Shown here one piece after another: positions 3,327 through 3,815 of a DNA stretch of 24,401 nt (within the stretch, counting starts at the first letter, position 1; every line of letters starts with the position of its first letter). Source of the DNA: a virus. Taxonomy: Duplodnaviria; Heunggongvirae; Uroviricota; Caudoviricetes. The notes beneath the pieces are model-generated. The model did no database searches, was not told the origin of the DNA, and was given only the letters and a program-made list of their open reading frames with translations. The stretch covers positions 1 to 24,401 of the IMG/VR virus record IMGVR_UViG_2802429219_000006. One strand, written 5' to 3'. A program made the position numbers and the translations under genes.

Positions 3327-3815
3327 ATGATGCACGCCTTTCTCGAAGTAGGTAAACGCTTTGCTACTTGGATCACCGAGCGAATCAGCTAGTATGAATT
3401 CGTAGAAAATCAGGACTTTTTGATTATTTCCCAAAATCGGGAAATAATCGATAGAGGCATACCAGCTAAAGACTACCACCTCATCCTGGACCCCGCCAAA
3501 GAACTGGCAATGGTCGAGCGCAACGAAAAAGGCTGCCAGATCCGCCGATACTTCATCGAGTGCGAGAAGAAGCTGCGCGAAGAAACCACCAGCACACAAT
3601 CCCCTCTGAATGTTGACATCATCATGCGCGTCAGAAACGGCTCCGTTACCCACATTGAGCACCACAAATCAGGCTCAGTTATAACCACAGAATGGGCAAT
3701 TCACTTACTACGCAAAAGTGGATGGATTGTCATGCCTCGCGATGAACTTCTTAACACGCCACTGGCCCAACTGATGCCCGAAAGCTTGCCTCAAACCGGA
3801 ACCTGCGTCCGGTAA
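3327..3815 (+). pseudogene. AntA-like antirepressor remnant: 5'-truncated, with an in-frame amber codon at 3390-3392
   Basis: Reading frame ATG(3327) [85 protein letters not shown]... The ORF track only reports the part after the stop (3420-3815, TTG start). The WI..RI..Y.FVENQDF and AKELAMVE...RRYFIECE blocks match my memory of the phage AntA/AntB antirepressor domain; the usual N-terminal part of that domain is missing. Confidence 0.5.

Follow-up and report, generated by a model that had tools for sequence, protein, structure and literature searches.

In phage P22, the antirepressor gene ant is part of immI and lies within the late (tail) gene region, where the repressors Arc and Mnt, together with sar RNA, keep it under control. 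In phage P1, Ant expression is controlled by C4 RNA together with Icd (PMC8201110), and in the immI regions of P1 and P7 (C4, icd, ant) mutations near C4 or its target push the phage to lytic growth (PMC8201110). Another structured RNA, the small RNA sRNA-Xcc1 (Rfam RF02221), has been described as an integron-borne, trans-acting RNA of Xanthomonas (PMC2996969) and has been reported in APSE phages, where it lies upstream of a gene with an ORF6N domain (bioRxiv 10.1101/2020.03.17.996009). Here, we analyze nucleotides 3327–3815 of a 24,401-nucleotide (nt) stretch of tailed-phage DNA (IMG/VR record IMGVR_UViG_2802429219_000006; ‘the window’ hereafter denotes this whole stretch). With a probability of roughly 85%, this interval is a pseudogene, the remnant of a prophage antirepressor gene that no longer functions. 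Sequence comparison establishes its homology, the deletion that truncated it, the order of its lesions, and the loss of purifying selection, and it is probable that nothing useful is now made from it. As such, it is an ordinary pseudogene of a known family.

The window represents the late region of a rac-like lambdoid prophage. As in P22, the antirepressor gene is found among late structural genes, not in the main immunity region; in contrast to P22, nothing comparable to the control by Arc, Mnt and sar was found here. The likeness to P1/P7 immI lies in the window’s relatives, in which a structured RNA is found upstream of ant and one of its loops is complementary to the region where translation starts. 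The locus differs from P1/P7 in that the RNAs of the E. coli relatives score as sRNA-Xcc1, not C4, and in that the whole control region has been deleted from the window.

Full-length ant genes of 185–187 amino acids (aa) occupy the same slot in the E. coli prophages STEC711, cq9, P13-6, M8 and Rac-SA53, which answers the proposal of the initial annotation to look for an intact gene at this position in other isolates. These full-length Ants (WP_096934535.1 of STEC711, WP_000211521.1 of cq9, and ALP46894.1 of Rac-SA53) resemble the window copy in position, strand and 3′ overlap with a conserved 115-aa gene, and have both the AntA domain and the C-terminal domain in common with it. Over the shared 520 base pairs (bp), DNA identity to the window is ~95–96% for the STEC711, cq9 and ETEC4090 alleles and ~92% for those of M8, P13-6 and Rac-SA53. 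The window copy differs from the full-length genes in having lost codons 1–25 together with the native ribosome-binding site and the sRNA-Xcc1-type RNA upstream, and in carrying an amber codon at the Glu46 position and six missense changes in the AntA part. The broken frame is built from the following elements.

3309..3330, plus strand: spacer plus ATGA, all that the deletion has left of a rac61-like 154-aa gene: its ribosome-binding region, its start codon and the base that follows (alignment with P13-6, L011)
3331..3389, plus strand: ant codons 26/27 to 45 in full-length numbering, equal to fused-frame codons 2–21 (alignment with ETEC4090, STEC711, cq9, P13-6 and M8)
3330..3524, plus strand: match to AntA (PF08346), read-through residues 2–66; besides the stop, K40I, G42D, R45I, T53I, T56P and R70C relative to intact alleles
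3390..3392, plus strand: in-frame amber TAG; GAG (Glu) in every relative examined, at a column (E46, full-length numbering) conserved at 90% or more
3525..3815, plus strand: linker helix and ~75-aa C-terminal domain of the Ant subfamily, ending at TAA 3813–3815 (phrog_14211; AlphaFold2 model); open frame downstream of the TAG

An ATG at 3327–3329 (plus strand), a second ATG at 3330–3332, the TAG and the terminal TAA all share one frame, and the translation given in the initial annotation is identical to the computed one. That annotation had read a single in-frame amber codon as splitting what looked like one AntA/AntB-type domain, and the GAG of the relatives confirms this view: the TAG falls inside the domain, whose frame is therefore interrupted. 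The 162-aa read-through product matches PF08346 with 76.5 bits (E = 2.5e-21; gathering score 27 bits) across profile positions 6–68 of 68, a sequence match that is far beyond chance and contradicts one of the two outcomes that had been named as refuting the assignment, namely no match to antirepressor domains. PHROG antirepressor families likewise match the product, with the lowest E value (7.5e-56) for phrog_14211 ‘anti-repressor’ over residues 47–162; with the Pfam domain and 1860 database homologues, they bear out the identification as an AntA-type antirepressor homologue. Two features of the phrog_14211 Ant subfamily are present in the window, namely the ~75-aa C-terminal domain and the convergence on, and overlap with, the 115-aa gene. 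NCBIfam has no matching model for any of three proteins: the read-through product, full-length Ant and the 182-aa product of the gene upstream. The presumed role of the family, inactivation of a repressor, is taken solely from the names given to it by Pfam, PHROGs and PGAP.

Among the best 120 of the 1860 homologues, which were inspected, the closest, proteins of 185–189 aa in Escherichia, Salmonella, Citrobacter and Cronobacter, bear the name ‘phage antirepressor Ant’ or ‘antA/AntB antirepressor family protein’; Yersinia has more distant relatives of 171 aa. An alignment of 35 representatives revealed a highly conserved AntA half, including residues 1–25 (13 columns conserved at 90% or more; consensus MTxQLIPVFNGTISNETxLLCNARD), and a C-terminal half that differs between subfamilies. 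An AlphaFold2 model of a full-length relative (mean predicted local distance difference test score of 74) contains strands at residues 8–13 and 16–22, helices at 23–30 and 36–46, strands at 55–59 and 73–78, and helices at 79–89 and 92–114, followed by a small C-terminal domain made of a beta-hairpin plus helices. Neither a solved structure nor a tested homologue of Ant was found by a profile search of the PDB, which returned nothing at E ≤ 1, or by a Foldseek comparison of the model with the PDB, which returned no match at E ≤ 0.001; the best Foldseek matches, to DdrC and to Ski/Dachshund winged-helix-like domains (E ~0.4–1.5), are not significant.

The gene had been described as 5′-truncated, and the full-length orthologues at the same position indeed have 25 extra N-terminal codons. 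Alignment with the P13-6 locus (L011) accounts for this difference: window 2700–3330 corresponds to L011 1054–1684 and window 3331–3900 to L011 2501–3073, so that 816 bp (L011 1685–2500) are missing from the window, with the breakpoint between 3330 and 3331. The deletion begins 1 base past the ATG that opens a 154-aa gene with a signal peptide (rac61 in Rac-SA53; phrog_26680) and ends within ant codon 26, and the resulting junction (ATGA/TGCAC; junction sequence GTGATATTTATGATGCACGCC) is in frame and shows no microhomology. The fused frame starts 18 nt behind the 182-aa cargo gene and has 162 codons: it takes its ATG, like its ribosome-binding site, from the neighbour and continues through a hybrid Met codon into ant codons 27–186. 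The deletion removed the 154-aa gene, the structured RNA and ant upstream region, the ant Shine–Dalgarno sequence and ant codons 1–25, and with these the N-terminal residues conserved in the subfamily. The model gives the AntA domain four strands, of which residues 1–25 hold the two most N-terminal, along with the beginning of the first helix (23–30). Because this N-terminal beta-hairpin is lost, the truncated 162-aa protein would probably have been inactive even before the later lesions.

An identical junction is carried by phage pPE4 and E. coli TUM1881, both with an open 162-codon frame and GAG at the site of the window’s TAG. The 162-aa Ants of vB_Apl-pPE4 (gp63, XBA92500.1) and TUM1881 (WP_089540189.1) share with the window the fused start ATGATGCAC and the upstream 182-aa gene; they differ from it in their open frame and in their AntA sequence, which is that of the full-length alleles. 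A survey of 5426 complete E. coli genomes found the junction in 9. The frame is open in one of them, TUM1881; ETEC1747 and ETEC1701 have lost 21 bp of the AntA domain without a shift of frame, and six (U90, STEC306–308, HNSQ2209 and Z1324SEC0014) have lost a further 66 bp, again in frame. Each of the two deletions is flanked by short direct repeats. Three IMG/VR contigs also have it. One (L095) has an open frame that is 5 nt from the window and already includes G42D, R45I, T53I and R70C; another (L096) is readable over 120 nt and differs from the window at the TAG base alone. The third (L094) has R70H at the invariant arginine of KGRQIRRYF (codon 70, window 3534–3536), which is R70C in the window and in L095; by sequence, these are independent hits on one invariant arginine among junction carriers. 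The exact TAG allele was found neither among IMG/VR viral contigs nor in the 5426 complete E. coli genomes; the closest sequence in the latter shows 96.5% identity and a GAG codon.

Comparison of these alleles shows that, in the window’s lineage, truncation was followed by missense changes at conserved columns and then by the nonsense mutation; decay preceded the stop because L095 carries four of the window’s missense changes in a still-open frame. Step by step, the 816-bp deletion first fused the neighbour’s ATG in frame to ant codon 26/27; missense changes then built up at conserved AntA positions (G42D, R45I, T53I and R70C, then K40I and T56P); and a G-to-T change at last converted Glu22 (GAG) to TAG.

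The same gene in the same slot has decayed independently in other genomes, where PGAP has flagged it as a pseudogene: U90 JKF55_RS11450 is ‘missing N-terminus’ and ETEC4090 QDW69_RS10560 is ‘missing C-terminus’. The types of lesion differ, with 21-bp and 66-bp in-frame deletions on the truncated background in U90, a 1-bp frameshift of a full-length copy in ETEC4090, and nonsense plus missense changes in the window. The ETEC4090 locus (L006; the ETEC1703 match is identical) retains a full-length ant with its upstream RNA, in which a 1-bp deletion frameshifts the C-terminal domain; because this full-length copy is frameshifted, ant also decays independently in the untruncated arrangement.

The TAG differs from the relatives by a single base (G>T), and a sequencing or assembly error, with the gene really an open 162-codon frame, was a concern raised at the outset. 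We consider such an error extremely improbable. The Logan assembly of run ERR12450820, an independent assembly, is 100% identical to the window over 601 bp around the TAG, and it differs at 57 alignment positions, all in 249–2349 (neighbouring tail-fibre and baseplate genes); because of these differences, it represents another strain. Recurrence of the TAG in the assembly of a separately sequenced strain excludes a base-call error, and the TAG allele has other derived changes in common with the IMG/VR contigs L095 and L096.

The AntA part (codons 3–84 of the fused frame) was used for substitution counts. Between themselves, the intact alleles of pPE4, TUM1881, STEC711 and cq9 differ by 0 non-synonymous and 1–12 synonymous changes, whereas between the window and the intact allele closest to it there are 7 non-synonymous changes, one of them the stop, and 3 synonymous ones (7:3 versus 0:11, Fisher p = 0.001). 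Five of these seven, namely the stop, R45I, T53I, T56P and R70C, affect positions with no variation or with conservation of at least 90% in the family; in full-length numbering, columns E46, R67, T78, T81 and R95 are occupied in the window by stop, I, I, P and C, and the conserved residues are not retained. These counts show that purifying selection, as read from the alignment, has been lost on the window’s ant, which thus combines disabling lesions relative to intact orthologues with relaxed constraint, as expected of a pseudogene.

Several observations weigh against this conclusion. In pPE4 and TUM1881, the 162-codon frame is still open and encodes the AntA sequence of the full-length alleles, and the truncated form is possibly active. 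The 816-, 21- and 66-bp deletions are all frame-preserving, which is mildly unexpected under pure neutral decay (a chance of ~1 in 27). A host amber suppressor is possible, the scan for transfer RNA (tRNA) genes having covered this 24.4-kb contig only. Past the TAG, the C-terminal half is still uninterrupted, and against the closest intact allele it shows no more than 2 non-synonymous changes, with 3 synonymous ones. Finally, an AGGA lies 4 nt before a TTG at 3420 and ATGs follow at 3510 and 3627, so that re-initiation yielding the C-terminal domain is conceivable.

Were the TAG read through, by a suppressor tRNA or through its context, a 162-aa fusion would still be made and could act as an antirepressor, and in the sister prophages pPE4 and TUM1881 the same frame is open and annotated as antirepressor. 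ARAGORN, however, found no tRNA gene of any kind in the window, hence no prophage suppressor tRNA; the read-through product would still miss the conserved N-terminal 25 residues and carry R45I, T53I, T56P and R70C; and the substitution counts indicate that constraint is gone. We regard read-through as very improbable.

Another conceivable product would be a shortened functional protein made from the TTG at 3420 or from the ATGs, supplying an intact C-terminal Ant domain alone or as a dominant-negative form. The initial annotation had offered the TTG product as its alternative, and the frame is as follows.

3420..3815, plus strand: mechanical 131-aa open reading frame (ORF) with a TTG start, the longest ORF remaining after the TAG; not a conserved gene

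The frame 3420–3815 is open, and the later deletions in sister lineages all leave the C-terminal part in frame. In its disfavour, no family of ~131 aa occurs among the best 120 of the 1860 homologues, where the only short form is a 133-aa, doubly deleted variant beginning MMHAF; the TTG (Leu) start codon is not conserved in other alleles; and the 131-aa product alone scores 25.1 bits on PF08346, under the threshold of 27. Its first 35 residues contain R45I, T53I, T56P and R70C, all at conserved columns. The frameshift in the full-length ETEC4090 copy destroys the same C-terminal part, which is thus dispensable there. Public gene calls, meaning those on the window’s contig PTSA01000041.1 (assembly GCA_002965785.1) and on Logan contig L007, do not include the 131-aa ORF. 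A scan of 2500–4500 gave one promoter-like match (3420–3448; 4.1 expected, hence fewer than chance) and two terminator-like matches (1.7 expected), neither adjoining ant, and was uninformative. The TTG-initiated protein is accordingly unsupported, and we judge a functional short product of any start to be improbable, although re-initiation may still yield the open C-terminal domain, which would then have been retained for a separate function.

Special constraint on the C-terminal half was considered as a separate possibility and rejected. Nucleotide diversity across the relatives is 0.01–0.035 in this half, equal to that of the adjacent 115-aa structural gene, and 0.08–0.20 in the 5′ half of ant. 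Because its diversity is the same as that of the 115-aa gene, the 3′ half is assigned to the shared, conserved backbone; as judged from these values, the mosaic boundary crosses ant, and the conservation is uninformative on function.

Within the gene, window 3464–3578, which encodes a 26-residue stretch, is 87–89% identical at the DNA level to ant/antB of many Stx-converting phages, and the remainder of the gene is unrelated to them at that level. By sequence, this interval looks like a shared segment where AntA genes recombine.

The control region that the window has lost is preserved in its relatives. All five tested relatives with full-length ant have an sRNA-Xcc1 element of 84–86 nt (70–78 bits; gathering score of RF02221, 53) on the same strand as ant, with its 3′ end 25–38 nt before the ant ATG. 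The elements are located as follows.

L011 2308–2391, strand of ant: sRNA-Xcc1 element
L002 3853–3936, strand of ant: sRNA-Xcc1 element
L009 2302–2387, strand of ant: sRNA-Xcc1 element
L006 2302–2387, strand of ant: sRNA-Xcc1 element
L012 2315–2399, strand of ant: sRNA-Xcc1 element

The loop of the second hairpin of the RNA is complementary to sequence overlapping the ant Shine–Dalgarno, and loop and target covary in four variants (CUUGUA/UACAAG, UCUUUUGG/CCAAAAGA, UUUGUUUGU/ACAAACAGA and UUCGUGAA/UUCACGA). A similar arrangement was seen at 20 AntA loci from other genera (L013–L032), 17 of which have C4 antisense RNA (RF01695) or sRNA-Xcc1 in this place, often with isrK upstream. For 22 loci, the duplex between RNA and leader has a mean energy of −12.3 kcal/mol for cognate pairs versus −8.2 kcal/mol for non-cognate ones, and 18 of the 22 RNAs have their cognate leader among the three best-ranked partners. 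AntA genes across Proteobacteria are thus regularly preceded by C4 or sRNA-Xcc1-type RNAs with a loop that covaries with the ant ribosome-binding region.

The Rfam C4 model does not match the E. coli relatives, where sRNA-Xcc1 is the sole match at E ≤ 1; their kinship with C4 is therefore drawn from position, size, structure type and loop/target pairing, not from a match to the C4 model. Complementarity and covariation argue that an sRNA-Xcc1-type RNA represses ant translation in the intact module. These patterns suggest that sRNA-Xcc1-type RNAs act on antirepressor genes like the C4 RNA of P1/P7, and so suggest a function for an RNA family hitherto known mainly as a trans-acting Xanthomonas sRNA. 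The ancestral module, which survives intact in related rac-like E. coli prophages between the baseplate-J gene and the 115-aa gene, comprises an RNA of the sRNA-Xcc1 family and, downstream of it, a 185–187-aa Ant (AntA plus the ~75-aa C-terminal domain); the RNA would hold Ant synthesis off, as C4 does in P1/P7, and Ant, if its family names are a guide, would inactivate the prophage repressor once made.

In the window itself, neither the RNA upstream of ant nor a loop complementary to the ant start region is present, the RNA and the native Shine–Dalgarno both being deleted. No structured RNA in the window (2600–4200) matched Rfam, either at the gathering threshold or at E ≤ 1, and the LexA-box pattern CTG-N10-CAG has no match upstream of full-length ant in the relatives or in window 2500–3900. 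With both Ant and its RNA control gone, this route to induction and to cross-talk with other prophages is closed to the prophage.

The loss of the RNA raises the question of whether decay was selected rather than neutral. By removing the RNA and setting the ant frame behind a cargo gene’s translation start, the deletion would have freed the fused ant from control, an unregulated antirepressor would have destabilised lysogeny, and inactivations would have been repeatedly favoured. This one rare junction has indeed collected 21-bp and 66-bp deletions, R70C, R70H, several other missense changes and the TAG. We nevertheless hold selected inactivation to be doubtful; if true, the locus would be a natural record of losing RNA control over an antirepressor. 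As a non-functional remnant, the locus matters little alone, being one more decaying prophage accessory gene of a type already flagged by annotation pipelines in sister genomes.

The slot in which ant resides is bounded and occupied in the window by the following genes, to which an ORF antisense to ant is added.

1512..2738, minus strand: baseplate J/gp47-family gene, left edge of the slot (PF04865 in gene calls; baseplate J annotation in relatives)
2760..3308, plus strand: 182-aa upstream cargo gene with the N-terminal signal-peptide-like sequence MKFNSLGILISSLLFSGVSHA; homologue of rac62 of Rac-SA53; phrog_31333 (unknown function), E = 2e-127
3791..4138, minus strand: conserved 115-aa tail/baseplate-module gene, right edge of the slot; phrog_7986, E = 9e-64; in all relatives
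3249..3665, minus strand: 138-aa antisense ORF, spurious; public calls in L007 and L008, stops in five relatives

The structural genes are all on the minus strand; the 182-aa gene and the ant frame are on the plus strand and are read against the late genes, and the 115-aa gene is convergent with ant, their 3′ ends overlapping by 25 nt. The 182-aa gene is also found in pPE4, Rac-SA53, TUM1881 and P13-6, and its protein has no Pfam or NCBIfam match.

The 138-aa ORF is called on both contigs that carry this allele, which might make it the real gene of the interval. We give this next to no credence: the equivalent frame has internal stops in pPE4, TUM1881, cq9, P13-6 and M8, and the ORF is antisense to a frame with a 76-bit Pfam match. 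It is rejected as an annotation artefact, which was called because the sense frame is broken. An ant pseudogene belongs at this place in the annotation, and neither the 131-aa TTG ORF nor the 138-aa antisense ORF should be listed as a gene.

The cargo to the left of ant (window 2739–3326, compared with L002, L006 and L009–L012) varies among relatives. The 182-aa gene stands alone in the window, pPE4 and TUM1881 and is accompanied by the 154-aa signal-peptide gene (phrog_26680) in Rac-SA53 and P13-6; a different 179-aa gene is found in M8, and an LprI-family lysozyme-inhibitor gene on the opposite strand in STEC711, cq9 and ETEC4090. This variation supports the earlier suggestion that the slot has undergone repeated cargo exchange, except that ant itself stays in place and it is the cargo upstream of it that changes. 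The comparison provides a clean, base-resolved example of a tail-module cargo slot remodelled by deletion and gene fusion.

Over its length, the window is ~95% identical to ‘Actinobacillus phage vB_Apl-pPE4’ (83% of the length) and ~94% identical to Escherichia phage Rac-SA53 (75% of the length). pPE4 (L001/L093, PP818812.1) has genes for RecET, Kil, a DicA-like protein and YdaT, as is typical of rac-like prophages in E. coli; because of these genes and its ~95% identity to an E. coli-type prophage, Actinobacillus pleuropneumoniae seems a surprising host for it to be assigned. Genes for heat-labile enterotoxin IIa are present in Rac-SA53. The lysis region of the window (22253–24236; holins and endolysin) is 86–91% identical to phiP27, SerU-LTIIb and an Stx2k phage.

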